In this document: piece by piece, positions 11,928-37,595 of the stretch
Numbering within the stretch: position 1 is the stretch's first letter
Layout: each line of letters opens with the position of its first letter
Source: Phycisphaerae bacterium
Lineage (GTDB): Bacteria > Planctomycetota > Phycisphaerae > JAAYCJ01
Assembly (NCBI GenBank): GCA_041658725.1
Contig: JBAZZQ010000008.1
Span: 18,070-82,069 of the forward strand
Direction of reading: 5' to 3'
Length of the DNA stretch: 64,000 nt
Position numbers and translations under genes: made by a program
The notes under the pieces: generated by a model
Databases searched by the model: none
What the model saw: the letters and a program-made list of their open reading frames with translations, nothing else
What the model was told of the DNA's origin: nothing

Positions 11928-12031
11928 TAATAAACCAGTTTGTCTTATAAGCACATTTGATTAATATGGGCCTTTTGTAAAACTTCGGGGAAAATAGCTG
12001 AGGTAGGGACCGCTAAAATGGGGGTGCCTCA

Positions 12032-12204
12032 AGTTATAATCTCAAATTGACCGATGTTGATATTGGAAACAGTATAACTCGTTGCATTCAATCGTATTAC
12101 GCTATTTGTGTCATTCCTTCGCAGGCGTGACCAGTCCTGCTGCAAGCTGCGGACTCCCGTTTTTGCGGGAGTGACAGAAAAAGCCGGTCAATTTGAGTTA
12201 TAAT
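12032..12204. repeat. MITE-like element: ~20-bp terminal inverted repeats (TTATAATCTCAAATTGACCG / CGGTCAATTTGAGTTATAA) flanking a 130-bp core with an internal GC hairpin (ACTCCCG-TTTTTG-CGGGAGT).
   Basis: The arms are reverse complements with a single indel. The internal stem-loop is followed by an A-run. Confidence 0.4.
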
Positions 12205-12751
12205 GATTTAAATGGACTTTCCGATGATGTCGAAGATATCAGCGAATGGAGAGTTTTATTGCAAGATTCTGGAAATTTTGGTATCGTCCCAAAGGTTGGG
12301 GAAACCATGTATCTGTTACTTATCAGCTATCCAGAAAGAGGATCGCGCTTGTCCGAGCCCTCAACGGTCTTTTCCATAACTTCCCAGCGGGCAAAGAGCT
12401 GGATGTCCGCCATCGACCAAAATACACTCATGGGTCGTTTCATGTTCACCTCAACGAGACTCATCTATAAGTGATTGCCAAAACAACATTTAGCAAATGA
12501 TTGACTCCAAGTGGTCTTTCTTTGCCGACAAAGCCAGTTCAACGATGGCCGCCAGCCCTGTCAAATCGCTGACACCGTTTCAGTTTGGGTAAACATCGCC
12601 GGGGATTTACCTGGGTAGCTGGCTCCTCTACAAGGGAACCTTCTGCCGATTCCCTATCCCCAGCTTTTGGGACGATAATGAAATTTTGCAATAGGCTGCT
12701 CATTTAACGAAAGCCATAAGACGGTGCAGTACCGTCAACTAGCAAAGGAGA

Positions 12752-13894
12752 ATGGCTATGAAGCGGAATTTGACCATTATCACTCTGTCGATTCTGTGGT
12801 TTTTATCATATTTTTCACCGTTGGTCTGGGCGGTTTCCGGCTCCGTTTACTCGGTGGGCAATGATACATACGGGCAATTGGGCATCAATCCCAGATTACC
12901 AGTGTCGGCGTCGATCAACGGCGTGGTGGGAATCGCCGCGAGCTACTACCACAGCCTTGCGGTCAAGGGCGACGGGACCGTATGGGCATGGGGATACAAC
13001 GGCTATGGCGAGTTGGGCGACGGGACTACGGTGGATCGCTCGACGCCGGTGCAGGTTTCGGACCTGACGGGCGTGGTGGGAATCGCAGCGGGCGGCTTCT
13101 ACAGCCTTGCGGTCAAGGGCGACGGCACGGTATGGGCATGGGGATACAACGACTCCGGCCAGTTGGGCGACGGGACTACGACGAATCGTTCGACGCCGGT
13201 GCAGGTTTCGGACCTGACGGGCGTGGTGGGAATTACCGCGGGCGGCTTCCACGGCTTGGCAGTCAAGGGCGACGGCACCGTATGGGCATGGGGACAGAAC
13301 GACTTCGGCCAGTTGGGCGACGAGACTACGACGAATCGTTCGACGCCGGTTCAGGTATCGGGCCTGACGGGCGTAGTGAGAATCGCAGCGGGCTACTACC
13401 ACAGCTTGGCGGTCAAGGGCGACGACACCGTCTGGGCATGGGGATACAATGGCTACGGACAGTTGGGCGACGGTACTACGACGGATCGTTCGACTCCGGC
13501 GCAGGTCTTGGGCCTGACGGGCGTGGTGAGAATCGCCACGGGCGGTTTCCACAGCTTGGCGGTCAAGGGCGACGACACCGTATGGTCATGGGGATACAAC
13601 GGCTACGGTCAGTTGGGCGACGGTACTACGACGGATCATTCGATGCCGGTACAGGTATCGGGTCTGACGGGCGTAGTGGGAATCGCCGCGGGCTACTATC
13701 ACGGTCTAGCCATTAAAATTCTCAGCGGCGACTGCGACGACGACGGCAACGTGACGGCGGCGGACCTATTGATCGTGCTCAACAGCATGGATAAATCGAC
13801 GGGCGAGGTGGATTACGACGGCCGTGCGAACCTCGACGGCGATGGATCAATTAGCTCAACCGATCTTGCCATCGTGTTGGATAATATGGAATAG
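12752..13894 (+). CDS. Secreted RCC1-repeat (beta-propeller) protein with a C-terminal type-I dockerin module
   Basis: Signal peptide. Seven ~50-aa RCC1/ATS1 repeats (VWAWGYNGYGQLGDGTT...). The C-terminal DCDDDGNVTAADLLIVLN...DLDGDGSISSTDLAIVLDNM has two dockerin Ca-binding repeats. Confidence 0.8.
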   Translation: MAMKRNLTIITLSILWFLSYFSPLVWAVSGSVYSVGNDTYGQLGINPRLPVSASINGVVGIAASYYHSLAVKGDGTVWAWGYNGYGELGDGTTVDRSTPVQVSDLTGVVGIAAGGFYSLAVKGDGTVWAWGYNDSGQLGDGTTTNRSTPVQVSDLTGVVGITAGGFHGLAVKGDGTVWAWGQNDFGQLGDETTTNRSTPVQVSGLTGVVRIAAGYYHSLAVKGDDTVWAWGYNGYGQLGDGTTTDRSTPAQVLGLTGVVRIATGGFHSLAVKGDDTVWSWGYNGYGQLGDGTTTDHSMPVQVSGLTGVVGIAAGYYHGLAIKILSGDCDDDGNVTAADLLIVLNSMDKSTGEVDYDGRANLDGDGSISSTDLAIVLDNME

Positions 13895-14030
13895 GATAAA
13901 TTCCTGAAACACCTTACATAAAATTTTTCTTCCCCCCCTGAACGGCTACAAATTTTGTTGAAATTATGCAGCCAGATGATTATAATGTTCAGATATATGA
14001 ACGAAATGATCTTTTTGGGTTGTATAACAG

Positions 14031-14786
14031 ATGCGGATTCGTGAGCAGTTAATATTAGCGGAATTACGAAATAAGGGCCGTGTTTCGGTTGAAGACTTGG
14101 CAGGACAGTGCGACTGTTCGGAAGTAACGATTCGCCGGGCACTTCACAAGCTACAAGAAAAAGGTCAGATTGTACGAACATCCGGGGGAGCGATTGCGGT
14201 CGATCACGTTGGTGTGGAAGTTGCTTTTCCGGAACGACTTACGATCAATGCGGACCATAAGCAGCGGATTGCCCATGCGGCGGCCAATATCGTGCAGGAT
14301 AATTCCGTTGTCATGCTGGATAATGGGTCAAGCGTTTATCTGATGGCCGATTTTTTGAATTCCAAGAGCAATTTGACGATTATTACATCCTTTTTGCCCC
14401 TTGTAAATAAATTATCTTCGAAATCGGACTGGCGGATTATCGTAGCGGGCGGCGAACTAAGATCATCGCGATCAGACCTGGTCGGGTCATTAACCGAGGA
14501 ATTCATTTCGCGTTTATATGCAGATTATGTATTTTTAGGGGCTGATGGATTGGATGTCGAGATGGGGATTTCCACGGTCGATGTGGAGACGGCAAGGTTG
14601 ACAAAGGTATTGGCCAAATCGGCGGCCAAGAAAATTCTGCTGGCCGATAGTTCGAAGCTGTCTCGTCGGGCCACCTTTTCCGCGATCGGGTGGACTAGCG
14701 TTGACCGGTGGATAACCGATGCGGGAGTCGATGAGGATCATTTGAAGAAAATTCGCAACCAGGGGGTTACGGTTGATATCGTTTAA
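14031..14786 (+). CDS. DeoR/GlpR family transcriptional regulator
   Basis: N-terminal HTH (RVSVEDLAGQCDCSEVTIRRAL) and a C-terminal DeoR sugar-binding domain. Confidence 0.85.
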   Translation: MRIREQLILAELRNKGRVSVEDLAGQCDCSEVTIRRALHKLQEKGQIVRTSGGAIAVDHVGVEVAFPERLTINADHKQRIAHAAANIVQDNSVVMLDNGSSVYLMADFLNSKSNLTIITSFLPLVNKLSSKSDWRIIVAGGELRSSRSDLVGSLTEEFISRLYADYVFLGADGLDVEMGISTVDVETARLTKVLAKSAAKKILLADSSKLSRRATFSAIGWTSVDRWITDAGVDEDHLKKIRNQGVTVDIV

Positions 14787-14810
14787 TATATTTTTTGGAG
14801 ATTTTTTATT

Positions 14811-16178
14811 ATGAAGGGAACTTATGATCCGAAGCCTTATGACTTGGATTTAACTCGGTGGCCGTCAATTGTCGTTCCTCCGCCTGGACCCAGGAGTAAG
14901 GCGATGCATGACGCGACGTCGAAGATTATGAAAGGTTTATCGGGGCAGGTGAAACTGTTCCCGGTGGTGTTTTCGGAAGGCAAAGGCTGCACGCTGACGG
15001 ATATCGACGGGAATCGGTATATTGATTTTTCCAGCGGAATTTATGTGACCACGTTGGGACATTGCCACCCGAAGATTTCCGAGGCCGTGGCACATTGGGC
15101 GCATACCCTTATGAATGCCCATGATTTTACCACTCCTGTCAAACACGCGTTGCTGGAGAAATTGCTGGCGGTCTTGCCTGGAGATTACGGTGGGGTGCAA
15201 TTATATGATTCGGGAACCACGGCGGTGGAGGCCGCCATTCGAACGGCGCGGGCGGCTACGGGCAAGCCTGAATTTCTTTCCTGTTTTGGCGATTTCCACG
15301 GTAAAAGCGGTTGTTCAGCCTCATTGGCGAGGATGAATAAAATCTATGGTCCGACCCGGATGCCTGGGTTTTACATGCTGCCTCGTCCTGATCCTTACCG
15401 TCCGTGGTGGACACGGCCCGATGGATCACTGGATACGGAAAAGTATCTGGAGTTTTACGATACGTTTATTCTGGAAGGGACGACGAATCAGATCGCGGGG
15501 ATTGTCCTGGAACCCATCCAGGGGTGGGCGGGAAGTATCATGCCGCCGGATGATTTTTTCCCGAAACTTCGTCATTGGTGCACTGATCGAAAAATTCTCC
15601 TGGTCGATGACGAGGTGCTGTGCAGCATGGGTCGAACCGGATATTGGCTGACGGCGGAACATTGGAAGGTGACGCCGGACATTGTGACGCTTGGCAAGGG
15701 TTTTGGAAACGGTTTTCCGGTAACGGCCATGGTTGTTCGGAAGGAATACGCGGAGGCAGTGGATAAAATTTCCGCCTCGACCAGCTATGGTGGAAATCCG
15801 ATGGCCTGCGCGGCGGCGTTGGCGAGTATCGAAGTGATCGAGGAAGAAGGGTTGCTGGAACATGCCAAAGAACTGGAAAAATCATTTAAGAAGAAATTAA
15901 AAACGATGAAGGAAAACCACCCCATTGTCGGTGATGTTCGATGCCTGGGCTGCCTGATGGGAGTGGAACTGGTCAAAGACCGCGGCACAAAGGAACCCTT
16001 CGATGACGCCGGCAAGCGGGTCTACCAGCGTGCGTTTTCGAAAGGTCTGGCGTGGATTCCGGCGGGGCATATTTTGCGGATGAGTCCTCCCATCGTTATG
16101 CCGGAAGACGTCGCGGCCAAGGCGATGGATATTATCGACGAATCAATCGGTGAGGTAGAAAAAGAGCTTGGATACTGA
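14811..16178 (+). CDS. Class-III PLP-dependent aminotransferase (AT-III family)
   Basis: 455 aa with the AT-III fold. The PLP lysine lies in the LGKGFGNGFP region. The DxxxT...TLGK architecture is typical of GabT/ArgD-like enzymes. Confidence 0.8.
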   Translation: MKGTYDPKPYDLDLTRWPSIVVPPPGPRSKAMHDATSKIMKGLSGQVKLFPVVFSEGKGCTLTDIDGNRYIDFSSGIYVTTLGHCHPKISEAVAHWAHTLMNAHDFTTPVKHALLEKLLAVLPGDYGGVQLYDSGTTAVEAAIRTARAATGKPEFLSCFGDFHGKSGCSASLARMNKIYGPTRMPGFYMLPRPDPYRPWWTRPDGSLDTEKYLEFYDTFILEGTTNQIAGIVLEPIQGWAGSIMPPDDFFPKLRHWCTDRKILLVDDEVLCSMGRTGYWLTAEHWKVTPDIVTLGKGFGNGFPVTAMVVRKEYAEAVDKISASTSYGGNPMACAAALASIEVIEEEGLLEHAKELEKSFKKKLKTMKENHPIVGDVRCLGCLMGVELVKDRGTKEPFDDAGKRVYQRAFSKGLAWIPAGHILRMSPPIVMPEDVAAKAMDIIDESIGEVEKELGY

Positions 16179-16181
16179 AAA

Positions 16182-17324
16182 ATGAAAACAATTTCCTTCG
16201 GAATAATCGGTTGTGGTCTGATGGGCCGGGAATTTGCCAGCCTGACGGCAAGATGGTGTCATCTTCTCGATGTGGATTTTCAGCCGCGGATCGCGGCGAT
16301 CTGCGATACCAATGAGTCGCTGTTTGGCTGGTACAAAAACCATTTCCCGTCGATCGAACAATTCACGACGAATTATCGGGACCTGCTGGCCAATCCCCGG
16401 ATAGAAGCGATTTATTGCGCCATTCCTCATCATCTGCACCAACAGGTGTACTGCGACATCGTCCGGGCAGGAAAACATTTGATGGGGGAAAAACCGTTTG
16501 GGATCGACAAACCAGCCAACGACGCGATTTTGTCCTGCCTGAAGGAACATCCGAACGTTTTTGTTCGCTGCAGTTCGGAATTTCCATTTTATCCCGCTGC
16601 CCAGAAAATCTGCGATATGATCGAGAACAAAGCCTTCGGCAAAATCATCGAGGTCAACAGCGGTTATCTTCACTCCAGCGACCTGGACCCGAACAAACCC
16701 ATCAACTGGAAACGGATGGTCGAATTCAACGGTGAATACGGCTGCATGGGCGATTTGGGGATGCACGCCTGTCATATCCCTTTTAAAGCGGGTTGGAAAC
16801 CGGTCAACGTGCGCGCCCTGCTGGCCAAAATCATTACGGAGCGTCCCGATGGAAAAGGGGGGCAGGCTGCCTGCAAAACGTGGGACAACGCCACCCTGTG
16901 TTGCGAGGCCCGTGATCCCGACCGGGGTGAGCTATTTCCGATGATCCTCAAGACCCATCGGATCGATCCTGGCCAGAAGAACACATGGTACATTGAAATC
17001 AAGGGCACGAAGGTTTCGATGCGATTCAGCACCAAATTGCCCAAAACGCTTTTTTGGATGGACTACCAGGGCGGAGAACAAATCTGGCAGCAGATCGACA
17101 TGGGAAACGACACCGCTTTTAAAACCATCACCGGGGGTATTTTTGAAATCGCGTTTTCCGACGTGATCTTCCAGATGTGGGCCGCTTTTTTGTACGAATA
17201 CGTGCATGGAAAACCCCTTAAAAGATTTGCCGCTTGCGTGACTCCTCAGGAAACCGCCTGGACCCATGAGCTGTTTACCGCGGCCTTGGCCTCGCAGCGC
17301 GAAACAAAAACCGTTGAGATTTAA
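16182..17324 (+). CDS. Gfo/Idh/MocA family NAD(P)-dependent oxidoreductase
   Basis: N-terminal Rossmann ISFGIIGCGLMGREFA and a C-terminal alpha/beta domain. Confidence 0.8.
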   Translation: MKTISFGIIGCGLMGREFASLTARWCHLLDVDFQPRIAAICDTNESLFGWYKNHFPSIEQFTTNYRDLLANPRIEAIYCAIPHHLHQQVYCDIVRAGKHLMGEKPFGIDKPANDAILSCLKEHPNVFVRCSSEFPFYPAAQKICDMIENKAFGKIIEVNSGYLHSSDLDPNKPINWKRMVEFNGEYGCMGDLGMHACHIPFKAGWKPVNVRALLAKIITERPDGKGGQAACKTWDNATLCCEARDPDRGELFPMILKTHRIDPGQKNTWYIEIKGTKVSMRFSTKLPKTLFWMDYQGGEQIWQQIDMGNDTAFKTITGGIFEIAFSDVIFQMWAAFLYEYVHGKPLKRFAACVTPQETAWTHELFTAALASQRETKTVEI

Positions 17325-17327
17325 AAT

Positions 17328-18695
17328 ATGTTATTTTGTGGAATTGACATAGGCACATCGAACACCAAGGCGGTTGTCATTGACGCCGAGGGTGAGCTTC
17401 GCGGCCGTATCACTATTCCTCTCGGAGTGGAAAGTCGCAAGGACGAATTTCCTGCCGCCGTGTGGGTAGATCATTTTCAAAAGGCCTTGAACTTTCTGGC
17501 GTCTCAGAGTCGTTCAGACGATCAATCTTTGTGCGTTGGGATTACAGCACAGGGTGGCAGCATGGTTCTTCTGGATGAAGAGTATCAACCCATTTCCACG
17601 GCCATGTCGTGGACGAAATTGGCATCCGATACTATCCTCCGGGAACTCAGGGGAGCAGTTTCGTTTGGGGATTTTTATGAGAAAACCGGGTGGCTGCCCG
17701 ATGGGTGGATGGGGGTATGCAAAGTCATGGAATTATTACGCAATAACCCTAAGCTCAAACAAAAATTAAAATATATCGCCTCGGTCCCTGACTTCGTTGG
17801 GGCCCAGGTATTCGGAACCTTTGTTACGGATGTCACACAGGCCCAAATCACCGGGTTTTATGATTTTACCCAAATGGACTGGATATCTGAAATTCTGAAC
17901 CGAATGGGACTGACCGGTGAGAACTTTGCCGAGGTAAAATCCGCCACGGAAATTCTGCGTGAAAATTTTTCCCTTTATTCCTCTCGGATAACTCTGATGA
18001 GCAGTTCACACGATCAATACGCCGTCATGCGCGCCTGTGGTCTGAATGACGATGGTTTTATGCTGGCAACAGGTAGTGCCTGGGTTGTCAACGGAAAATC
18101 GAAGCGTCCGTTGTATGACGGCGATTGTATGATTCATCCCGGCCGTGATTTGGAGGGTGGATTCGGGTACATTATATCATTTGAGGCCATAGGCAAGCAT
18201 TTTGATGAATTGTTAATCCATTTGGATGTGGATTATGATCTTTTGGCGGCAATGGCGGAGGATATTCAAAAGATAGAGATTCCGGATCAGCCCATTGATA
18301 CAACAACAATAAATTCATGCTCCGCCAAACCCGAAGCGATTCGGCGGTTTATGGAGGCGACCGTGGCTCGGGTACGCTTTGTTCTTGAAAAGAAACAATT
18401 ACTTGCGGGCATAAAAAAACTGCTTATGACCGGAGGATCCGTGGGAAATAATCTTTGGCCACAATTTCTGGCTGATATTTTGAATATCCCCGTGGATGCC
18501 GTCCGGTTCAATGAATTGACGGCCTATGGCGCCGCCCTTTTTTCCAGAACCGGGATGACCGGAGTGACCCCGCCCCACCGCTGGCCGATGGGAATAGCCG
18601 TTACGTTGTACGAGCCTCGGACTGCACGAAAATATGATGACTGGTTTTATGGCAAACAAGTTCCGTTGTTGGAATGGGGAGTTAACCGTGACTGA
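17328..18695 (+). CDS. FGGY-family carbohydrate kinase
   Basis: N-terminal GIDIGTSNTKAVV phosphate-1 motif. The C-terminal GGSVGNNLWPQFLADILNIPV...ELTAYGAAL is the FGGY C-domain signature. Confidence 0.65.
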   Translation: MLFCGIDIGTSNTKAVVIDAEGELRGRITIPLGVESRKDEFPAAVWVDHFQKALNFLASQSRSDDQSLCVGITAQGGSMVLLDEEYQPISTAMSWTKLASDTILRELRGAVSFGDFYEKTGWLPDGWMGVCKVMELLRNNPKLKQKLKYIASVPDFVGAQVFGTFVTDVTQAQITGFYDFTQMDWISEILNRMGLTGENFAEVKSATEILRENFSLYSSRITLMSSSHDQYAVMRACGLNDDGFMLATGSAWVVNGKSKRPLYDGDCMIHPGRDLEGGFGYIISFEAIGKHFDELLIHLDVDYDLLAAMAEDIQKIEIPDQPIDTTTINSCSAKPEAIRRFMEATVARVRFVLEKKQLLAGIKKLLMTGGSVGNNLWPQFLADILNIPVDAVRFNELTAYGAALFSRTGMTGVTPPHRWPMGIAVTLYEPRTARKYDDWFYGKQVPLLEWGVNRD

Positions 18696-20094
18696 TCGTC
18701 AAACAAAAAAATATTCCATCGGTTTTATTCCGGTGATGGCGAAACTCTACAAGAACCTTCTTCCGGATTTGCAGGTCCAACTCCAACAATTTTCCGGTCA
18801 GATTGGCCGGGCGTTATCGGATCGTCAACTGGAAATAAAAACCGGCCAGGTTGCCGTTGAGGATTCGGAAATTCGACGGCAAATCCGTTCGTTCGAAGAG
18901 GCGCATATCGACCTTCTGGTCATTGGGCACGTCAGTTATTGTCCGAGCGGGGAAATTCTTCCCGGATTGCTGAAAACGAAGTTGCCTGTGCTCCTCTGGC
19001 CGGCTCAGCCCATGCTTGAATTAAGCGGCAAGCATTACGATGGGGAGGCTATGATTCACAATCATGGCGTTCACGGAACGCAGGACCTGGCGAATATTTT
19101 GATGCGAAACAATCGCCCCTGTGGTGTTTTGCATGGCCATTACCGCCAACTGTCCTTCAAAAAAGAATTGCTCTCCTGGGTTCGGGCCGGTCGTGCAGTT
19201 ACTTCCATGAAATCATCCCGGCCGCTGGTTCTTGGAGGTCATTTTGAGCAAATGCTTGATCTTCAATTGGGAAAAACAAATTTTCCAAAAACCTTCGGCA
19301 TCCAATCGCGTGAAATATCGCTGAATGAATTTATCCAATCCGTGAAAACCGTTTTGGAAAAAGACATTAAGGCTGGAATTAATCGCTATCGATCCTGTTT
19401 TGAATTGGACAAACACCTGACCCAGACATTTCTTGAAAAAACGGCCCGCCATGACGTTGCCTTGCGAAATCTCATGCGCCAGCGCAAAAGTTCCGCCGTC
19501 GGAATCAATTTTCAGGCTTTATGCAACGATCCCCGAATCGGAGATGCACTGCACGTAGCGGCCAGTCTGCTTATGTCGGACGGGTTGGGTTACGCGGGGG
19601 AAGGCGATTGGGTTACCGCGATGCTCGTTTGTGGGCTAAGGTCGATCTCGCCAAGAGTGACGTTTACGGAAATTTTTTCCGTGGGTTATCGGGATAACCG
19701 CCTGGTGCTCCGCCACTGGGGAGAAGGAAATTTTGACTTGGCCAGAAAAAAACCTCTTCTTAAAATCAGTCAATTCAAAGATAAGCATCCCGCCGAATTC
19801 GCGGTCATGAATTTTGAATTTAAGCCAGGACTGGCGACTCTGGTCAACCTGAACGTTGGAAAGGACGGACATGCGCAAATCCTTTCCATCGCCGGCAGGA
19901 TTGCCCCCGAATCACTTTCCGCGGTGGATGGCCCGCGAGGGATATTCAAGCCAGACCGGAAGCAAATTTCCGAATTATTGAGCGACTACGCGTATCAGGG
20001 CGGCAGCCATCATCTGGTGATGGTTATGGAGCAGGCTGAGAATGTTTTGGACAAAATTTCAAAATTAACCGGCTGGAGGTATGTAAAGGTATAA
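18688..20094 (+). CDS. L-arabinose isomerase family protein (AraA-like sugar isomerase)
   Basis: GYAGEGDWVTAMLV and GGSHHLVMV match the AraA active-site regions (GFAGEGDWKTAAL; GGAHHTV). A GTG start overlaps the upstream stop (GTGA). Confidence 0.55.
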   Translation: MTDRQTKKYSIGFIPVMAKLYKNLLPDLQVQLQQFSGQIGRALSDRQLEIKTGQVAVEDSEIRRQIRSFEEAHIDLLVIGHVSYCPSGEILPGLLKTKLPVLLWPAQPMLELSGKHYDGEAMIHNHGVHGTQDLANILMRNNRPCGVLHGHYRQLSFKKELLSWVRAGRAVTSMKSSRPLVLGGHFEQMLDLQLGKTNFPKTFGIQSREISLNEFIQSVKTVLEKDIKAGINRYRSCFELDKHLTQTFLEKTARHDVALRNLMRQRKSSAVGINFQALCNDPRIGDALHVAASLLMSDGLGYAGEGDWVTAMLVCGLRSISPRVTFTEIFSVGYRDNRLVLRHWGEGNFDLARKKPLLKISQFKDKHPAEFAVMNFEFKPGLATLVNLNVGKDGHAQILSIAGRIAPESLSAVDGPRGIFKPDRKQISELLSDYAYQGGSHHLVMVMEQAENVLDKISKLTGWRYVKV

Positions 20095-20102
20095 CAAAAT
20101 TG

Positions 20103-20219
20103 AATATCCAATATCCGACACTCAACACCCAACATCCAAGTAAAGAAAACAAGAGACGCCGAATCCTTGCCCTTCTCTTCACTTGAGTGTTGGATGTCGA
20201 GTGTTGAATGTTGGATATT
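20103..20219. repeat. Heptamer-periodic hairpin element (ATATCCA/ACAYYCA units). The left arm is repeated at 60139-60176. It probably acts as a terminator or REP-like element.
   Basis: Left arm 20103-20141 and inverted right arm 20181-20219, each built from five 7-nt units. It lies 9 nt after the isomerase stop. Confidence 0.5.
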
Positions 20220-20252
20220 AAATTGAATTTCCTATTTATTGAAGGAGAATTT

Positions 20253-21062
20253 ATGAAAGACAATTTGTTTTTTTCACGGTTTTTTAGCGAGGGTCCTGTT
20301 TTGGTGGTGGCCGTCGATCATGGTTTGTTCGACGGTCCGGTTCCCGGAGTCCACCAGGTAAACAAAATTGCCGAAAATATCCATCCGGACATCGACGCCG
20401 TGCTGGTTTCCCCCGGAATGTTTCGACACCTCAAGGAGGATCTCTTTGGCAAACGTCATTGCCCCCAACCGATCGTTCGGATCAATTGGTCGAGCATCTA
20501 CTGCTTTTCCTGGGACTATCATGCGGGAGATACCGTAACGACTTATCAGCCAATGGACCTCTTGAAAATGGGAGTCCCCGTGGTTTTGATTTCCCTCTCC
20601 TTACGAACCGGATCAGAAGCGAGGGACGCCGAAAACGTAAAAATATTCGCCGACCTGTGCCGGCAGGCTCATGACCTGGGCATGATGGTGATCGGGGAAT
20701 ATTTTCCGGTGAACGATGAAAAACTCAACGTTGACGAGATGCACGAGGAGATCAAAATCGGATGCCGTATTCTTTTCGAATTGGGGGCCGATGTGATTAA
20801 AACCTTTCATACCCGCGACTTTGACAAAGTGGCGCAAGGTTGTCCTATCCCGATTCTGACCCTGGGCGGCAAGCGCGCCCCCTCGGACCTTGCCGCGCTG
20901 GAAATGGCTGAAATCCAGATTAAATCCGGGGCAGCGGGGATCGTCTTCGGGCGAAACGTCTTTCAGTCGCCCAAGCCCATTGCCCTGCAAAAGGCGATCC
21001 TGGACGTTTTAAAAAATAACGTTTCCGCCCGTCAGGCGGCCAAAAAACATGGACTAAAATAA
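20253..21062 (+). CDS. Class I (DhnA/FbaB-type) aldolase, DeoC/LacD superfamily
   Basis: VVAVDHG N-terminal motif. Schiff-base lysine context GADVIKT. Length 270 aa. RBS ggaga. Confidence 0.7.
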   Translation: MKDNLFFSRFFSEGPVLVVAVDHGLFDGPVPGVHQVNKIAENIHPDIDAVLVSPGMFRHLKEDLFGKRHCPQPIVRINWSSIYCFSWDYHAGDTVTTYQPMDLLKMGVPVVLISLSLRTGSEARDAENVKIFADLCRQAHDLGMMVIGEYFPVNDEKLNVDEMHEEIKIGCRILFELGADVIKTFHTRDFDKVAQGCPIPILTLGGKRAPSDLAALEMAEIQIKSGAAGIVFGRNVFQSPKPIALQKAILDVLKNNVSARQAAKKHGLK

Positions 21063-21078
21063 AAAAGGAAATAGAACC

Positions 21079-22329
21079 ATGAACGAAAAACTTATTCGAG
21101 TGGGTGTGCTGGGGGTTGGACGCGGCCGGGGTTTTGCGCTCGGCGCCGGTCCGCATCTTGGTATGCAACTGGTTGCCCTGTGTGATACCTGGGAAGAAAA
21201 ACTTCGCCAGGTCGGTAAGGAATTAAACGTTACAACCTACACCGATTATCAAAAATTCCTGGCCCACGACATGGACGCGGTGATCCTCGCGAATTTTTTT
21301 CACGAGCACGCCCCATTCGCAATCCAGGCACTTGCCGCCGGAAAGCACGTCATGAGCGAAACCGCCGCATGCTTTACACTAGGGGAGGGAGTGGCACTCA
21401 TAGAGGCTGTGGAAAAGTCGGGCAAAACCTACATGTTCGCCGAGAATTATCCGTACATGGTATTCAATCAGGAAATGCGCCGTATCTACCACACCGGAAA
21501 GCTTGGTGAGGTTCAATACGCCGAGGGTGAATACATTCACCCCATGTCCGCAGAGTTTTACAACTCTATCTCCTGTGGTTACAATCACTGGCGAAACTGG
21601 CTTCCCCTTATTTATTACAGCACCCATGCCCTGGCGCCGGTGATGTATGTAACCGACACCTGGCCGACGAAAGTCAACGGATTCATTGTTCCATACGACC
21701 CCGAGGATAAAGAACATTTTCAAAAAACCGTCCGGCGAAGCGACCTGGCCTGGGCTATCATGCTCCACATGGACAACCAATCGCTGGTCCGACTCACCGG
21801 CCTGTCGCAACGGGGGCATGGGAATTGGTACCGCTTCCACTGCCAAAAGGGCTTGATGGAAAATCTGCGATATGGCAATCCTGACATGGTCCGCATCCAT
21901 CGCGAGTCCTATGACCGGAAAAAAGGCGAGCCGGAGGAAATGATTTGTCTTCCCGAATTTCCCGAGTACCACGACCGTGCGACGCAAAGCGGCCACGGCG
22001 GCGGGGATTTTTTCATGAACCTGCATTTCGCCCAGTCCATTCGCACCGGGAAACCCCCATATTTCGATGTCTACCGCGGGGTGGCCATGTCCATTATCGG
22101 GTCGCTAGCCTACCGGTCCGCTCTGAACAACTCCAATACCGTCGAGGTTCCCGATTTTCGAAAACCTGCCCAACGGGTCAAATACAAAAACGATCATTGG
22201 AACCCCGACCCGAAGCGTTACAAAAAAGGTTACCCCAAATCCAGTATTCTCGGCGACATCAAACCCCCGGCCAGCGGGTTCGCCTTCGCCCATAAATGCT
22301 GGAAGAAAGCCGGATACCACGGCGAATAG
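21079..22329 (+). CDS. Gfo/Idh/MocA family oxidoreductase
   Basis: IRVGVLGVGRGRGFA Rossmann start. It carries a long C-terminal extension typical of glycoside-hydrolase-109-like/MocA members. Confidence 0.75.
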   Translation: MNEKLIRVGVLGVGRGRGFALGAGPHLGMQLVALCDTWEEKLRQVGKELNVTTYTDYQKFLAHDMDAVILANFFHEHAPFAIQALAAGKHVMSETAACFTLGEGVALIEAVEKSGKTYMFAENYPYMVFNQEMRRIYHTGKLGEVQYAEGEYIHPMSAEFYNSISCGYNHWRNWLPLIYYSTHALAPVMYVTDTWPTKVNGFIVPYDPEDKEHFQKTVRRSDLAWAIMLHMDNQSLVRLTGLSQRGHGNWYRFHCQKGLMENLRYGNPDMVRIHRESYDRKKGEPEEMICLPEFPEYHDRATQSGHGGGDFFMNLHFAQSIRTGKPPYFDVYRGVAMSIIGSLAYRSALNNSNTVEVPDFRKPAQRVKYKNDHWNPDPKRYKKGYPKSSILGDIKPPASGFAFAHKCWKKAGYHGE

Positions 22330-22342
22330 GGAGGAAACTTCC

Positions 22343-23428
22343 ATGCCGCTATTGTACAAGGATGACTGGGACGAAACCAAAGACCGATACCGCGCCTGGT
22401 GGAACGGCGAGTATATCGGTCGCTGCGGATTGTTCGTTACCGCGCCGCGAGAGGGAATCCCCAACACCCCCCCGCCGACACCGCCCGAAGACCCGGAAGA
22501 ACGCTGGACGGACCTGGACTACATGTGTAAAGCCCAGGACTATGAATTTCGAAGGACGTATTATGGAGCCGAAGCGTTTCCCAATTATTATCCCGGTTAT
22601 CCTGGCCATACGGCCATTCCGGCTTTTTTAGGATGCAAGACGACCCTGGACCATGAAACCGGATGGTGGGAGCCTTTTTTGAGCGGCCCAGAATGGAGAA
22701 TTAAAGACATCGTTCTGAACAAAGAATCGCGATGGTGGAAGTTTGCCATCGAGCAATTAGACCGAATGACAAACGATGCCCTGGGAAAAGCTATTCCCAG
22801 TACCGGCGCGTTCGGAGGATCAGGTGATACTCTGGCAGCCATTCGTGGCACAGACCGACTCCTCATCGACGTGATGGAACGGTCTGATCTTGTTCGCCAA
22901 ACCGAAGAGTACCTGATGGACATGTGGTTTGAGGTTTATGATACATTTTACGACATTGTCAAAGAATCGACCGACGGCGGATCACAAGGATGGTTTCCAT
23001 TATGGGCCCCCGGAAAGTTCTATGGCGCGCAGAATGATTTTTCATACATGATCTCACCGGCCATGTTCCGCGACCTCTTTTTGGCCGTGATTCGCCGGCA
23101 AACTGAATTTTTGGATTATACGATCTACCACGTCGACGGGATCGGCGCCTTCGCCCACGTGCCCGCCTTGTGCGAACTTCCCAAACTCCAAGCCATTCAA
23201 ATTTTACCCGGTGACGGGAAACCCAGCCCGCTGCATTATCCCCAAGTGCTTAAAATCGTACAGCAGGCTGGAAAAAATCTTTGGATCATGATCGAACCAA
23301 ACGAAGTGGAACAGGCCCTCGCCCTGTTGTCAGCCAAAGGGTTGTTTATCCATACAACATGCAAAACGGAATCGCAAGCCCGGCAATTAATCGAAAATGT
23401 CAAAAAATGGTCCCGGAGACGAATATGA
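22343..23428 (+). CDS. Uroporphyrinogen decarboxylase (URO-D)-like family protein of unknown function
   Basis: Strong RBS gggagga. The size and the C-terminal region (HVDGIGAFAHVPALCELPKLQAIQI) resemble URO-D/MtaA-like TIM barrels. The assignment is tentative. Confidence 0.45.
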   Translation: MPLLYKDDWDETKDRYRAWWNGEYIGRCGLFVTAPREGIPNTPPPTPPEDPEERWTDLDYMCKAQDYEFRRTYYGAEAFPNYYPGYPGHTAIPAFLGCKTTLDHETGWWEPFLSGPEWRIKDIVLNKESRWWKFAIEQLDRMTNDALGKAIPSTGAFGGSGDTLAAIRGTDRLLIDVMERSDLVRQTEEYLMDMWFEVYDTFYDIVKESTDGGSQGWFPLWAPGKFYGAQNDFSYMISPAMFRDLFLAVIRRQTEFLDYTIYHVDGIGAFAHVPALCELPKLQAIQILPGDGKPSPLHYPQVLKIVQQAGKNLWIMIEPNEVEQALALLSAKGLFIHTTCKTESQARQLIENVKKWSRRRI

Positions 23429-24555
23429 ATTTAGGCAAGTCCGCAAAATTGGCATGGCAAACGATTCGCCAGGAACCGACGAAGGGAATTCCCTCCTGGA
23501 TGATTCTTGTGATGGAACATTCAATCATCGAGCGTTTTGCAGGCGTAGAACCGGGGGCCTATTGCAACGACCCGGAACCTGTTTACATCAAATTCCAGCA
23601 GTCCGTTGGAACCTGTATGTTGGATCAGTACATTCCAACCAATCCCCTGACTATAGGCAACCACGGTTATGAAAACACCGAAAAAGGCGCCACAACCGGG
23701 GCGGATAAAATTGTCCTCGACGGTCTGTTGATCGATTCCCCGGAAGCCGTCATCGAACATATAGAGACTTTTATTTTCCCGGAAATCTCAAAACAAATCT
23801 CCGCATATGACGAAACCCGTCATGTTCAGCAACTTTTACAGGAAGAAACTGACATTCAGAAAAAGCTTGGCCCAGGTATTTTAAAAGTACCTTATAACGC
23901 CAGTATTCCTTTCCTTCTTTATGGAACGTATGGGTATTCCGAATTCTTTATGGCCTATGCGTTGTACCCGGAAGTGATGGAAAAGTATTTTTCATTATCC
24001 GCGGACCTGGGCCTTATTAAAAATCGGGGGCTCGCCCGTGCCTTTCAGGAGGGAAATCTTCCTCCTCTGCTGCGGGTCGATAGTGATATGGCCGACTCGC
24101 GGGGCACTTTGGTTGATATCAAATCCCTGGATAAAATCTGGTTCCCTCACTTTGCTCGCAGTCTGGAGCCTTTACTCCAAGCCGGCATTAAGATGATCTG
24201 GCACTGTGACGGAAACCTTATGCAGATGGTCCCTCGATTGCTGGATGCCGGGCTGTGTGGGTTCCAGGGTTTCCAATACGAAGACGGAATGGATTATGAA
24301 AAAATCTGTAAAATGAAAGCCCGGAATGGAAACGACCTTATCATTATTGCCGGGGTTTCTGTAACTCGGACGCTCCCCAAAGGAAAACCGGACGATGTTA
24401 AACGTGAATTGAAATGGCTGGTTGAAAAGGGTCCTAAAACCGGATTATTCCTCGGTGGGTCCAGTTCGATTACTCCGGGAGTGAGCTATGAGAATATTAA
24501 AACCCTGGTCGATGGCCTGCTTCATTACCAGGAACATGGCAGGGCCGGCCTATGA
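23424..24555 (+). CDS. URO-D-like (methyltransferase MtaA/CmuA-like) family protein
   Basis: The C-terminal block HCDGNLMQMVPRLLDAGLCGFQGFQYEDGMD is typical of the URO-D superfamily. The start overlaps the upstream stop (ATGA). Confidence 0.5.
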
Positions 24556-25604
24556 AACCGGTGATCCAAATCACTCCTTACGACCGGGCATTTTACGATG
24601 AATTCATTCGGGATTTTCTGCCTCCCGCCGTGATCGATATCCATACTCACGTCTGGCTGGAGCAATTCCGTTCCACAGACCCCAACCCGCGTCCACTGGT
24701 AACATGGCCCGCACGGGTCGCTTCGGAAAATTCCATCGAACATTTGCGGGAAACTTACGAATTGATGTTTCCCGGCAAAATTGTTACCCCGCTTGTTTTT
24801 GCCAATGTCCTATCCCGGAAAGACTGTCTGGAGGCAGGAAATGACTATATCGCCGAGTGCATGAAAACATGGAATCTGCCCGGTTTGATCTGGTCCACTC
24901 CCGACTGGAACGGGCAGGAACTGGAAACGAAGATTCGTGCCGGTAACTTTCGTGGGGCAAAATCCTATCTCGCCCTGGCCCCAGCCCATATCCCCGATTC
25001 GGAAATCACCATCTATGATTTCTTCCCCCCTCCGCAATTGGAAGTGTTAAATCATCATGGATGGATCATGATGCTGCATATCCCCCGTCCGGGACGTTTG
25101 CGCGATCCGGTGAACTTGCGGCAGATGATCGAAATTGAGAAAAAATATCCAAACATCAAACTGATTATCGCCCACGTCGGGCGCGCCTATTGTCCCGAGG
25201 ATATCGGAAACGCCTTCGAGACGCTGGCTGACACTCGATCCCTGATGTTCGACATATCCGCCAATACTAATCGTATCGTCTTTGAAAAACTTATTTCCGA
25301 GGTGGGTTCTGAGCGTATTTTATTTGGAAGCGATCTACCCATCGCCCGAATGCGGATGCGGCGTATCTGCGAAAACGGCAGATATGTCAATCTGGTTCCT
25401 CGTGGATTGTACGGCGACGTTTCGGCCGATCCTAACATGCGTGAAGTGGAAGTTGACGACGCGGAGCAGATGACATTCTTTCTGTATGAAGAAATCAAGG
25501 CCTTTCGTCTTGCCGCCGAGAAGGCCGGACTTAACAAAAACGACATAGAAGATATCTTTTGCCATAATGCCCGTAGACTTATTCAGGACACGATGGAAAC
25601 CTGA
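24552..25604 (+). CDS. Amidohydrolase-2 family metal-dependent hydrolase (TIM barrel)
   Basis: DIHTHVW N-terminal metal-binding motif and an HVGRAY histidine later in the sequence. Translationally coupled to the upstream gene. Confidence 0.65.
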   Translation: MKPVIQITPYDRAFYDEFIRDFLPPAVIDIHTHVWLEQFRSTDPNPRPLVTWPARVASENSIEHLRETYELMFPGKIVTPLVFANVLSRKDCLEAGNDYIAECMKTWNLPGLIWSTPDWNGQELETKIRAGNFRGAKSYLALAPAHIPDSEITIYDFFPPPQLEVLNHHGWIMMLHIPRPGRLRDPVNLRQMIEIEKKYPNIKLIIAHVGRAYCPEDIGNAFETLADTRSLMFDISANTNRIVFEKLISEVGSERILFGSDLPIARMRMRRICENGRYVNLVPRGLYGDVSADPNMREVEVDDAEQMTFFLYEEIKAFRLAAEKAGLNKNDIEDIFCHNARRLIQDTMET

Positions 25605-25788
25605 TGATGTCATCCTGAGCGTCTTCACGAAGGAATGAGATTGCTTCGTCGCTACGCTCCTCGCAATGACAGTGCCTGAACGGGTACAACATTTTTTATT
25701 TATTGCCCTTGACTGCGCCGGGAATGTTCTTTATACTAAACAGTATGTAGTTTAATAAGAACACTCGATTTTGTGGAAAAAGGGACGT

Positions 25789-26343
25789 ATGAAACCGGAA
25801 GAATTCGGAATCCATCTGGAGCGGATGCGGAGCACGATGGGCTTGGGATTGCGCGAATTGGGGCGCAAGGCCGGCATGTCGCCGGGTGCGCTTTCGGCGA
25901 TTGAAAAGGGTCAAAGCAGCCCCACGCTGGCCACGTTGCATAAAATCCTTCGCGCCTTGGGGACCGATTTCGCGGGATTTTTCGCAACCTCTGCCCAAAA
26001 TGGCGCTGATCCGGTATTCGAGGCCAAAACCCACCGGATGGCCCAGGACGCGTATCGTCAATATGTCTTTCTGTTTCCCAAACGCGAGGATATGCGATTT
26101 GAGATGGTATTGGAAACGATTTTGCCGACGGAAAAAAAACCGGAATGGGAGACGCATGATTGTGATCTCGGAGGATATATCATTTCTGGTGGGCCGGTCA
26201 AAGTGGAAATCGAGGGGGTGGGCAAATGGACGCTTAAAAAAGGGGATTCCTTTTACATCAAGTCGGGTCATAAACACCGGGCAACGAATATGGGAAATAA
26301 CCCTTTAAAAATGGTTACGACTTTTGATCCACCACGTTATTAA
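25789..26343 (+). CDS. XRE-family HTH transcriptional regulator with a C-terminal cupin domain
   Basis: HTH LRELGRKAGMSPGALSAIEKGQSSPTLATLHKILRALG. The cupin barrel has GDSFYIKSGHKHRATNMG. Confidence 0.75.
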   Translation: MKPEEFGIHLERMRSTMGLGLRELGRKAGMSPGALSAIEKGQSSPTLATLHKILRALGTDFAGFFATSAQNGADPVFEAKTHRMAQDAYRQYVFLFPKREDMRFEMVLETILPTEKKPEWETHDCDLGGYIISGGPVKVEIEGVGKWTLKKGDSFYIKSGHKHRATNMGNNPLKMVTTFDPPRY

Positions 26344-26358
26344 TTTTGGAGAAAATGA

Positions 26359-27681
26359 ATGAACAAAGAGTGTTTGGCGATGGACGGCGGCAGTAAGGCA
26401 GTGGGAAATCTGGGGCCTTACCCCAGCAAGATCGGTCAGGACGAGTTGCTGGAACTTTTGAGCCTGTGGGAATTTTCCCCGCAAAACGCGGGAAAGATTC
26501 GGGATATTATCGAAGGCGAAAAGAACCTGCGGGGTCCGCACCTGTTTCGCTATTACAACCCCAAACCGAGCAAGGTGGCCGAGGCGGAAGTCGCGATGGC
26601 CAAGCTTATCGGAACCAAGTGTTGTCTGGCCGTCAATTCCTGCACTTCGGCTTTGGTGGCCGCTTACCGGGCGTTGGGGATCGGGGCGGGTGATGAGGTG
26701 ATCGTACCGGCCTATACGTTTTTTGCCACGGCAGCGACGGTCATCGCTTCCAACGCCATTCCCGTGATCGTCGATGTTGACGACACGTTGACATTGGATC
26801 CCAAAGCGATCGAAAAGGCCATCACCCGCCGCACCAAAGCCATCGTCCCTGTTCACATGCGCGGAGCGCCGGCCCAGATGGACGCGATTTTGGATATTGC
26901 CAAACGCAAGGGTATTGCGGTTATCGAGGATGTGGCGCAGGCTTGCGGCGGGAGCTTTAACGGCAAGCGTCTGGGCAGCCTCGGGACGATGGGGTGTTTC
27001 AGCTTTGATTACTACAAAATAATCGTCAGCGGTGAGGGCGGATTTATCACGACCAACGACGAGTGGCTATATACGCGAGCCCAAAGCTGGCACGACACAG
27101 CCGCTTGTTGGCGACCGGACCGGTTTGCCAACGAGCAGAGGAAAGGCGAACTCTTTTGCGGAGAAAACTACCGCATGAGCGAATTGGAAGGCGCGGTGGC
27201 GGTAGCCCAAATCCGAAAAACGGACCAGACGCTCCTGGGATATCGTCAAGCCTGTCAGTGGATCAAAACGGGAATCGATAAATTTCCCGGCCTGTCGTTC
27301 CGCCGACTCACCGACGAAAAGGGTGACGCGGGCATTTGCCTGGTCCTCTACCTGCCCGATGCGGACAAGACGAAACGGGCCATGGAGGCCATGAAGGCCG
27401 AGGGCGTACCGGCGGGAGGAATCTACGATTCCAAAGTCCGCGACTGGCACGTATTCTGTTACTGGGAACATATTCTGGATAAAAAGACGGTGGCCGGCGA
27501 CGGTCTGCCCTGGAGCGCGATACCGGCAGAGGAGCTTCCGAAGTATTCACGCGACATGTGCCCCAAGACGCTGGATTTGCTTGCACGGTCGATCCATATC
27601 GAAATCAATCAGAGCTATACCCAAAAAGATTGCCAGGCAATCTCCGAAGGTATCAATAAAGTATTGAGGAGCGTGCTATGA
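26359..27681 (+). CDS. DegT/DnrJ/EryC1/StrS family PLP-dependent aminotransferase
   Basis: LAVNSCTSALVAAYRALGIGAGDEVIVPAYTFFATA and FSFDYYKII (Lys region) are hallmark DegT motifs. Confidence 0.85.
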   Translation: MNKECLAMDGGSKAVGNLGPYPSKIGQDELLELLSLWEFSPQNAGKIRDIIEGEKNLRGPHLFRYYNPKPSKVAEAEVAMAKLIGTKCCLAVNSCTSALVAAYRALGIGAGDEVIVPAYTFFATAATVIASNAIPVIVDVDDTLTLDPKAIEKAITRRTKAIVPVHMRGAPAQMDAILDIAKRKGIAVIEDVAQACGGSFNGKRLGSLGTMGCFSFDYYKIIVSGEGGFITTNDEWLYTRAQSWHDTAACWRPDRFANEQRKGELFCGENYRMSELEGAVAVAQIRKTDQTLLGYRQACQWIKTGIDKFPGLSFRRLTDEKGDAGICLVLYLPDADKTKRAMEAMKAEGVPAGGIYDSKVRDWHVFCYWEHILDKKTVAGDGLPWSAIPAEELPKYSRDMCPKTLDLLARSIHIEINQSYTQKDCQAISEGINKVLRSVL

Positions 27682-36124: not shown

Positions 36125-36155
36125 TATGTCTCCTTATGTGGATGATCCCGCAATA

Positions 36156-37584: not shown

Positions 37585-37595
37585 TTTGTAAGTTG

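Follow-up and report, generated by a model that had tools for sequence, protein, structure and literature searches.

Organization of the gene cluster

The window analysed here is a whole stretch of 64,000 nucleotides (nt) from a Phycisphaerae bacterium (contig JBAZZQ010000008.1), and all positions are counted from its first letter. Between positions 14031 and 25604 it contains a cluster of ten open reading frames on the + strand (Table 1), which encode a regulator of the DeoR family, a class-III aminotransferase (AT3), two Gfo/Idh/MocA oxidoreductases (GFO380 and GFO416), an FGGY-family kinase, an AraA-like isomerase, a class I aldolase, two proteins that resemble uroporphyrinogen decarboxylase (URO-D-like, UROD1 and UROD2) and an Amidohydrolase_2 enzyme (AH2). 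The original prediction, made from the sequence alone, had counted eleven genes. The families it had assigned are confirmed, by Pfam for nine of the ten proteins and, for the exception, UROD1, by an AlphaFold2 model and its Foldseek match to MtaA and HemE.

Table 1. Positions of the cluster genes and of the associated sites in the window
Feature	Positions	Strand	Basis
DeoR-family regulator (HTH_DeoR and DeoRC sensor domain)	14031-14786	+	Pfam
Class-III (omega-type) pyridoxal phosphate aminotransferase, AT3	14811-16178	+	Pfam Aminotran_3
Gfo/Idh/MocA oxidoreductase, GFO380	16182-17324	+	Pfam
FGGY-family sugar kinase	17328-18695	+	Pfam FGGY_N, FGGY_C
AraA-like aldose-ketose isomerase	18688-20094	+	GTG start (matches ENA gene call); Pfam
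Long imperfect hairpin in the gap between the AraA-like and aldolase genes	20098-20224	+	RNA fold
DhnA/DeoC class I aldolase (DeoC/LacD fold)	20253-21062	+	Pfam DeoC
Gfo/Idh/MocA oxidoreductase with GH109-type C-terminal domain, GFO416	21079-22329	+	Pfam
URO-D-like protein 1, UROD1	22343-23428	+	AlphaFold2 fold; Pfam-less family
URO-D-like protein 2, UROD2	23425-24555	+	Pfam URO-D
Amidohydrolase_2 TIM-barrel enzyme, AH2	24552-25604	+	Pfam PF04909
Promoter-like site, TTGAAA-17-TATAAT	13958-13986	+	Consensus match, 11/12
Terminator-like hairpin and T-run after AH2	25672-25687	+	Pattern match
GNAT N-acetyltransferase, probable detached member	11340-11927	+	Pfam Acetyltransf_1

The genes are tightly packed: the successive junctions measure 24, 3, 3, -8, 158, 16, 13, -4 and -4 nt, and the cluster contains two ATGA start/stop overlaps, by one of which the start of UROD2 overlaps the stop of UROD1. 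The earlier claim that many of the genes are translationally coupled is correct for most pairs, judging from these short gaps and overlaps. The start of the aldolase gene is preceded by the Shine-Dalgarno sequence GAAGGAG. The operon's sole large gap is occupied by a hairpin which is one of a kind within the window (52-nt arms, 81% complementary, fold of -54.7 kcal/mol, z = -8.0) and which may serve in RNA processing or stability or as an attenuator, or may be a small repeat that was inserted. A sigma-70-like site, the top match across positions 12000-30500, is located 45 nt 5' of the DeoR gene, and the terminator-like hairpin after AH2 is followed by a promoter-like site (25709-25737) for the next unit, which is regulated separately. 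Because these sites are consensus matches and neither class is enriched over shuffles, they are no more than consistent with a single transcription unit. A search for 8-9-mers common to the promoter region and the internal gap, which could have formed a shared operator, gave none.

Conservation of the cluster across phyla

A profile of UROD1 was searched against one-genome-per-species GTDB contigs, which gave 80 loci, all in metagenome-assembled genomes (MAGs) or metagenome-derived assemblies, and further loci were added by looking up individual homologues. All proteins of the window were compared by tblastn with the first 87 loci; paralogues were resolved by best score, and genes within 10 kb of UROD1 were counted as partners. 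Over about 85 loci, GFO416 is the commonest partner (32 loci), followed by UROD2 (28), AH2 (23), the AraA-like isomerase (18, or 15-18 related loci depending on the count) and the DeoR regulator (15). The DhnA aldolase (13), GFO380 (11), AT3 (9) and the FGGY kinase (9) are less frequent. The eleven window genes that flank the cluster provide an internal control for chance: in the same tblastn, those for the RCC1/dockerin, XRE-cupin, DegT, MttB, GH29, phosphatase, FucI-like, CAAX protease and UROD3 proteins and for two AP_endonuc_2 proteins were found in 0-3 loci each. The families of the cluster thus recur beside UROD1 in many phyla and the flanking genes do not, so the arrangement is far above chance, and the outcome that the original prediction had named as refuting, genes that are not co-conserved, did not occur.

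The co-conserved set occurs in about 20-25 loci, nearly all in MAGs, and 20 loci hold at least four of the families of the cluster. According to the titles of their records, the carriers belong to the Planctomycetota, Verrucomicrobiota, Lentisphaerota/Victivallales, Chloroflexota, Omnitrophota, Armatimonadota, Gemmatimonadota, Desantisbacteria, TA06 and Bacillota, so that orthologous clusters are present in at least ten phyla. The order of the genes is shuffled among them. In one locus (L004) it is DeoR-AT3-DhnA-UROD1-...-GFO416-GNAT::UROD2-AH2-FGGY-AraA (the double colon denotes a fusion), and in two others (L020 and L032) the genes are divergent, AT3-FGGY-AraA-DeoR on one side and DhnA-UROD1-UROD2-AH2::GNAT on the other. 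The content being kept and the order shuffled, functional coupling is a better explanation than inherited synteny.

The identity of the UROD2, AH2, GFO416 and AT3 orthologues between phyla lies within 50-73%. The isomerases and kinases of the other loci are only 20-31% identical to those of the window and fall into separate orthogroups. An expanded upper module is present in L093 (1313-12881), where the Gfo/Idh/MocA genes number four and the URO-D-family genes three, beside an unannotated protein of 458 residues and an AH2::GNAT fusion. Genes for GH28, a regulator of the LacI type, AP_endonuc_2 and an alcohol dehydrogenase that is Zn-dependent come next. The family appears to diversify by paralogy.

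The proteins were also scored against the curated equivalog cut-offs of NCBIfam. None of the ten reaches any of them, and the representatives of the partner orthogroups are likewise below. Full-text literature searches that combined the enzyme families, the taxa and the candidate substrates returned no description of the cluster. Neither search thus linked the cluster to a demonstrated pathway, and the original proposal of a candidate pathway beyond the pentose and fucose routes, built on an isomerase-kinase-aldolase core, is supported by the co-conservation and by the lack of an equivalog. The mlp clusters of Kountz and Balskus differ in the composition and the role stated for them (PMC10418091).

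The regulator and the enzymes of the proposed lower module

The closest NCBIfam models to the DeoR protein are GlpR, SrlR and AgaR (172-178 bits, with cut-offs of 260-350). In the AraA-like protein, the AraA_N, AraA_central and Arabinose_Iso_C domains are all above the Pfam cut-offs. Its alignment with E. coli AraA (4f2d) shows that E306, E333, H350 and H450 are kept (in GEGDW, FTE, RHW and SHH), residues which are involved in catalysis and Mn binding in the E. coli enzyme. Since they are retained, the protein is likely to be a working aldose-ketose isomerase; it is not an AraA orthologue, because it scores 106.6 bits with NF002795, for which the cut-off is 622.

The best NCBIfam model for the FGGY kinase is XylB, at 94 bits compared to a cut-off of 380. 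The FGGY genes of the related clusters are 20-27% identical to that of the window, and the FGGY kinases of other loci are XylB-like (291 bits). The aldolase has MJ0400 and LsrF as PDB relatives, both with an E value of about 2e-23. The Schiff-base lysine is found in ADVIKT, which aligns with ADIVKT of MJ0400 and AQIIKT of LsrF, and the aspartate of the DHG motif in VDHG, which aligns with MDHG and FDHG of the same two proteins. Its NCBIfam scores are 127.2 bits for ADH synthase (cut-off 241) and 122.1 bits for LsrF (cut-off 297), and its orthologues in 13 loci are 34-48% identical. The ten-gene unit has neither an AraD epimerase nor FucI plus a class II FucA aldolase. The FucI-like gene located 7 kb downstream sits in another unit and is not co-conserved.

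The aminotransferase, the oxidoreductases and the amidohydrolase

AT3 matches Aminotran_3 over profile positions 8-401 of 403 (318.8 bits, E value of 6e-95). Its best PDB relatives are the P. horikoshii protein 7vno, amino-acid racemases and GabT, and its best NCBIfam model is the acetylornithine-aminotransferase family (366 bits compared to a cut-off of 552). Its orthologues in the related clusters are 57-73% identical.

The nearest solved relatives of GFO380 are levoglucosan dehydrogenase (6a3f, E value of 6.5e-20) and scyllo-inositol/L-glucose dehydrogenase. With the LevoglcsnDh model NF052479, whose cut-off is 650, GFO380 scores 81.4 bits and GFO416 scores 39.9. The latter is closest to the GH109 enzymes 6t2b (E value of only 1e-14) and 2ixa (1e-12), then to DgpA, a similarity at the superfamily level. 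A match to PF21252 (GH109-type C-terminal domain) is on record for the product, and no N-terminal signal peptide is obvious when the sequence is judged by eye.

AH2 matches PF04909 with 77.3 bits, and H31, H33, H208 and D261 (HxH...H...D) are invariant across 22 homologues. NCBIfam has no match at all for AH2, and a PDB sequence search gave no relative. The AlphaFold2 model (predicted local distance difference test score, pLDDT, of 91) is nearest to the gamma-resorcylate, DHBA, LigW and IDCase decarboxylases, which are ACMSD-type, with template-modelling (TM) scores of 0.52-0.57. It is comparably near to a presumed sugar lactonase, an amidohydrolase-2 of Bifidobacterium, and to a putative pyrone-dicarboxylate hydrolase. 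AH2 may be a decarboxylase, a lactonase, a hydratase or a deacylase.

The URO-D-like pair

UROD1 and UROD2 are encoded, with AH2, by the last three genes (22343-25604), for which profile and structure searches gave a URO-D/MtaA fold, a Pfam URO-D match and PF04909, respectively. UROD1 has no Pfam or NCBIfam match. Its AlphaFold2 model, built from an alignment of 21 homologues, has a pLDDT of 94.3. Foldseek relates it to 4ay8, 6w2o and 1r3s (E values of 5e-9 to 5e-7, TM 0.56-0.63). The best structural match is M. mazei MtaA, together with several uroporphyrinogen decarboxylases (HemE), with E values of 5e-9 to 1e-6, TM of about 0.6 and 10-13% identity. The UROD1 orthologues are 50-79% identical across phyla, and the wider family amounts to 2750 matches with E<=1e-3 and to 750 clusters at 50% identity with E<=1e-30, among 1.84 billion representatives.

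UROD2 matches PF01208 in its C-terminal half only (30.8 bits compared to a cut-off of 23.9), and its orthologues are 61-69% identical. A search of its profile against PDB sequences gave no relative; UROD2 (28 bits for MtaA, with a cut-off of 400) and UROD3 have weak MtaA/CmuA matches in NCBIfam. The fold of UROD1 and the Pfam match of UROD2 justify the label URO-D-like for both genes. A profile-profile comparison of the two is weak (E value of 0.047), so that their kinship rests on fold and Pfam rather than on sequence.

Both proteins contain an invariant motif, YHVDG in UROD1 and WHCDG in UROD2, which would be equivalent to positions of the zinc site of MtaA. The zinc-thiolate site of MtaA/MetE-type enzymes is HxC...C (HxCG). 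Neither in the six frames of the window nor in those of the first 87 related loci is there a B12-binding motif (DxHxxG...SxL...GG), and an Rfam search at the gathering threshold gave no cobalamin riboswitch. A classical methyltransferase role is therefore unlikely, since corrinoid protein and riboswitch are both lacking there and HxD would replace HxC, and the corrinoid methyltransferase reading was demoted on the first two of these grounds. As for the comparison with HemE, the context of the cluster is sugar catabolism, without haem genes nearby.

UROD1 also occurs in another setting. In nine loci (L026, L034, L038, L041, L045, L049, L054, L084 and L087, five of them labelled Omnitrophota) it is found without its usual partners, downstream of the gene for a conserved protein of 1079 residues with a GH42M domain. 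In L034 (3037-7354), the gap between the two genes is 1 nt and the GH42M protein has an apparent signal peptide. A trp biosynthesis operon is present in most of the nine.

Fusions and exchangeable partners

In L028, UROD1 and UROD2 are fused into a single protein of 777 residues. A GNAT acetyltransferase is fused to UROD2 in L004 and to AH2 in L020, L032 and L063, as well as in 7 of the 120 best AH2 homologues (P0249 and six more). These fusions link UROD1, UROD2, AH2 and one specific GNAT. The GNAT encoded upstream of the cluster in the window shares 43% identity (E value of 2e-47) with the one that L027 carries between its GFO416 and UROD2 genes, and 35-36% with the domains fused to AH2 (L020, L032, L063) or UROD2 (L004); judging from these similarities, it probably belongs to the system as a detached gene. 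A gene for an RCC1/dockerin protein (12752-13894, + strand), with six RCC1 repeats and a C-terminal dockerin type I domain, separates it from the cluster.

In five loci without this GNAT, a hexapeptide acyltransferase is present within the cluster or beside UROD1. The two sets of loci do not overlap, which looks like the non-orthologous displacement of one acyl-transfer step. The aminotransferase is also exchanged: in seven loci AT3 is replaced by a different, longer class-III paralogue, and one or the other is present in 12 of the 20 multi-gene loci.

Paenibacillus nasutitermitis is a cultured, partial carrier, whose AH2 is 62% identical to that of the window. The genes of its locus are in the order DeoR-FGGY-AH2-AraA-like-ABC transporter-GFO(GH109_C)-class-III aminotransferase-DeoR-alanine dehydrogenase, and no URO-D gene occurs within 21 kb. 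The association of a transaminase with alanine dehydrogenase is the usual arrangement for pyruvate-dependent deamination.

Other partners vary. A Clostridia cluster contains an M20 deacylase-type peptidase and a DUF4432 protein, a Victivallales operon contains an SGSH-type sulfatase, ABC importers and GH2 are found in Firmicutes loci, and the L030 cluster has an anion/sugar-acid-type transporter of the major facilitator superfamily (MFS). The glycosidases in or near the related clusters belong to GH2, GH28, GH106 and GH29, and none of these families is constant.

Proposed pathway and alternatives

The reading preferred here, and put forward tentatively, is that the cluster is a catabolic operon under the control of DeoR, directed at a modified sugar that most likely bears an amine (amino or N-acyl/N-sulfo-amino), and that this sugar would be processed by an upper and then by a lower module. 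The gene content, the operon-like spacing, the co-conservation, the domain fusions and the retained catalytic residues of the isomerase and aldolase are directly supported; from these we infer in which order and direction the steps run, what each enzyme acts on and what the URO-D-like pair does. In the upper module, AT3 would remove the amine to give a keto or aldehyde sugar, and the two Gfo/Idh/MocA enzymes would interconvert keto and hydroxyl groups of the ring, a step proposed because their nearest relatives are sugar C3-dehydrogenases. AH2 would remove, and the GNAT add, an N-acyl group, following the logic of ArgA/ArgD/ArgE or AstA/AstC/AstE. A UROD1-UROD2 complex would catalyze one further step, without a corrinoid or a thiolate-zinc site. 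In the lower module, the AraA-like isomerase would turn the aldose thus formed into a ketose, which the FGGY kinase would phosphorylate, and the DhnA class I aldolase would cleave the ketose phosphate into dihydroxyacetone phosphate (DHAP) and an aldehyde. DeoR would keep the operon repressed for as long as no sugar-phosphate intermediate has built up.

The lower module is better supported than the upper one, which is drawn from context. The original prediction had suggested an amino- or deoxy-sugar; of the two, the amino sugar is favored by the two alternative class-III aminotransferases, the GNAT and hexapeptide acyltransferases and the alanine dehydrogenase of Paenibacillus, whose proximity also supports the deaminating direction of the transaminase. 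The M20 peptidase of the Clostridia cluster and the SGSH-type sulfatase of the Victivallales operon likewise fit the handling of an amine, and the ABC or MFS importers and the GH2, GH28 and GH106 enzymes suit a catabolic role. Kanosamine, amino-6-deoxyhexoses, glucosaminate, aminocyclitols/rhizopine and Amadori compounds were set aside as substrates for want of discriminating evidence, and so were, on the same ground, muramic delta-lactam, pyruvylated or O-methylated sugars and a DKFP/ADH-type aromatic route.

It is also possible, although this is held more loosely, that a UROD1-UROD2 heteromer founds a large, corrinoid-independent branch of the URO-D/MtaA superfamily, devoid of a thiolate-zinc site and with one Pfam-less half, which would carry out a new sugar-modifying reaction (ether or ketal cleavage, or decarboxylation). 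The pair would then be at the heart of an undescribed modified-sugar pathway, widespread in uncultured anaerobic glycan degraders of at least ten phyla.

Several observations weigh against the assignment of the cluster to the catabolism of an amine-bearing sugar. Given the low identity of the kinases and isomerases from other phyla, they may not be strict orthologues of those of the window. UROD1 occurs by itself in about half of its loci, e.g., beside trp genes in Omnitrophota, and may also act outside the sugar cluster. About 40% of the multi-gene loci have no aminotransferase, although some of the contigs are short. The neighboring GH29, GH106, GH28 and GH2 suit neutral or acidic glycans rather than aminoglycans, and we know of no amino sugar that needs such an enzyme set. 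An acetyltransferase that consumes acetyl-CoA is unusual in catabolism and would suit biosynthesis too. Lastly, the model leaves the role of UROD1 and UROD2 unexplained.

The structural relatives of UROD1 and AH2 suggest another use of the same genes, in which the URO-D pair and/or AH2 would decarboxylate a sugar acid (e.g., a beta-keto uronate produced by a Gfo enzyme), leaving a pentose or deoxy-sugar for the AraA-like isomerase, an XylB-like kinase and the aldolase. The uroporphyrinogen decarboxylases among the closest structures to UROD1, the ACMSD-type enzymes nearest to AH2, the sugar-acid-type transporter of L030, the pectin-type neighbors (GH28, GH106 and RHGA-like) and the XylB-like kinases of other loci agree with this. 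The likeness is, however, at the superfamily level (TM 0.5-0.6, 10-17% identity), and AH2 is about as near to the presumed lactonase from Bifidobacterium. It also leaves the aminotransferases and acyltransferases unexplained, and decarboxylation is considered rather unlikely. An improbable alternative is that the cluster joins two independent modules, a rare-sugar isomerase/kinase/aldolase set and a URO-D/Gfo/AH2 set, which simply tend to lie side by side in the genomes of glycan degraders. The solitary UROD1 genes would fit such a separation, as would the Paenibacillus locus, where AH2, AraA-like, FGGY, Gfo and aminotransferase genes occur without URO-D, and L006 and L093, which hold the URO-D/Gfo/AH2 set without a kinase or an aldolase. 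But AH2 bridges the two sets, since it often adjoins AraA and FGGY and is fused to a GNAT that elsewhere is fused to UROD2; moreover, the tight packing and the overlaps run across the supposed module boundary, and the complete set recurs in distant phyla.

Demethylation, by which MtaA-like UROD1 and UROD2, perhaps with the nearby MttB, would strip O- or N-methyl groups (from 2-O-methyl-fucose or N-methyl amino sugars) before the sugar is catabolized, has little likelihood. It is suggested by the URO-D/MtaA fold with M. mazei MtaA as top match, by the weak NCBIfam matches of UROD2 and UROD3, by an MttB-family gene at 28470-29885, also found in L004 and a few loci, and by the fucosidase and rhamnosidase genes nearby. 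Against it stand the lack of a B12-binding motif and of a cobalamin riboswitch in the searches described above, the YHVDG and WHCDG motifs in what would be the place of the HxCG of MtaA, and the fact that MttB is found in about 3 of 85 loci with an identity of 21-24%; the aminotransferase is left unexplained as well. It is very unlikely that the cluster serves biosynthesis or salvage, in which the aminotransferase would turn an aldehyde or ketone into an amine and the GNAT or hexapeptide enzyme would turn this into an acetamide, with a compatible solute or a sugar of the envelope as possible product. Biosynthetic routes typically pair a transaminase with an acyltransferase that depends on acetyl-CoA (EctB/EctA, QdtB/QdtC), acyltransferases are recurrent in the cluster, and UROD1 and UROD2 are sometimes found among housekeeping or aromatic-amino-acid genes. 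Yet the DeoR regulator, the importers and the glycoside hydrolases indicate catabolism, as does the alanine dehydrogenase encoded close to the transaminase, the trio of isomerase, kinase and aldolase is a signature of degradation, and the cluster has no nucleotidyltransferase or glycosyltransferase.

Other features of the window

A second packed unit follows the cluster (25789-29885, + strand). It encodes XRE-cupin, DegT aminotransferase, AP_endonuc_2 and MttB proteins, with gaps of 15, -4 and 0 nt, and its MttB is a non-pyrrolysine member of the family. A GH29 fucosidase, a phosphatase and a FucI-like gene come after this unit and are not co-conserved with the cluster. The downstream XRE-cupin, DegT, AP_endonuc_2, MttB, GH29 and FucI-like genes were considered as members of the cluster and rejected because they are not co-conserved with it.

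On the - strand, a third URO-D-family gene adjoins the gene of an AP_endonuc_2 protein of 378 residues (34982-37292), which makes another URO-D/TIM-barrel pair. A match to group II intron D1-D4 RNA (37847-37986, - strand, 100 bits) adjoins a tRNA-Met (37510-37585, + strand). The region 47876-50000 has a low GC content (0.39, compared to about 0.50 elsewhere) and holds a gene for an N6/N4 DNA methylase; horizontal acquisition of a restriction-modification island may account for it. The window also encodes a protein with a dockerin type I domain (49658-50647, + strand) and, at 893-3706 on the - strand, an open reading frame of 937 residues without a Pfam match.

Implications

If the proposed pathway exists, a route of sugar metabolism that lies beyond current metabolic reconstructions is common to glycan- and necromass-degraders of groundwater, sediments, digesters and guts. 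Most of the carriers are uncultured, and the pathway would use two enzyme families that have no characterized member. Identification of the substrate would assign thousands of MAG annotations that now read "uroporphyrinogen decarboxylase family" or "amidohydrolase family", would set right proteins that are probably mis-annotated as methyltransferases or haem enzymes, and might uncover a chemistry that is new for the URO-D scaffold. The cultured Paenibacillus nasutitermitis makes part of the pathway accessible to experiment.

Comparison with known systems

The routes for L-fucose, L-rhamnose and L-arabinose (FucI/FucK/FucA, RhaA/RhaB/RhaD and AraA/AraB/AraD) likewise consist of an isomerase, an FGGY kinase and a DHAP-type aldolase, and DeoR-type control (FucR) is found in some isomerase-kinase-aldolase routes. 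The aldolase of the window is, however, a class I DhnA enzyme, unlike the class II aldolases of these routes, the AraD epimerase is missing, the AraA and XylB scores are far below the cut-offs (107/622 and 94/380), and six further enzymes have no counterpart there. The aldolase is equally near to LsrF, the DhnA-type thiolase of the Lsr system of autoinducer-2 (AI-2) processing, in which LsrK is the FGGY kinase, and to MJ0400, an archaeal ADH synthase; it has the same Schiff-base lysine and is also paired with an FGGY kinase. But LsrG and LsrACDB are absent, the aldolase scores 122-127 bits where 241-297 are required, and the context is glycan catabolism rather than a quorum signal or aromatic amino acids.

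Both Gfo proteins are nearest to the C3-dehydrogenases of the 3-keto-sugar pathways (LgdA/LgdB for levoglucosan, DgpA/DgpBC for C-glycosides, the NAD-dependent GH109/GH4 glycosidases and BT2158/BT2159 of Bacteroides), in which TIM-barrel partners are present as well. The similarity is at the superfamily level, and the partners in the cluster are URO-D-like proteins and AH2, not AP_endonuc_2 eliminases. GFO416 differs from the secreted GH109 enzymes in that it has no obvious signal peptide. With the corrinoid-dependent methyltransferase systems, in which MtaA/MtbA/MtqA of the URO-D family work with an MttB-type MT1 and a corrinoid protein, the cluster shares the URO-D/MtaA fold, and an MttB homologue is encoded 3 kb downstream of it. 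However, corrinoid proteins are lacking in the window and in the first 87 loci, the motif would be HxD and not HxC, and UROD1 and UROD2 are less than 15% identical to MtaA. MtaA-type enzymes are not known to be fused to each other or to a GNAT, as UROD1 and UROD2 are.

The pathways that protect an amine by acylation during transamination (ArgA/ArgD/ArgE, AstA/AstC/AstE and DapD/DapC/DapE) also combine an N-acyltransferase, a class-III aminotransferase, for which the acetylornithine model is the best NCBIfam match of AT3, and an amidohydrolase. In the window the amidohydrolase is of the PF04909 family and not of the M20 family, which is present in one Clostridia locus, and the setting is sugar catabolism. 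A repressor-controlled sugar operon with an isomerase, a kinase and an aldolase is thus familiar in kind. What is not described in the literature searched is the combination of enzymes, with its two URO-D-like families and the fusions between them and with other partners, and with an acyltransferase and an aminotransferase that recur.

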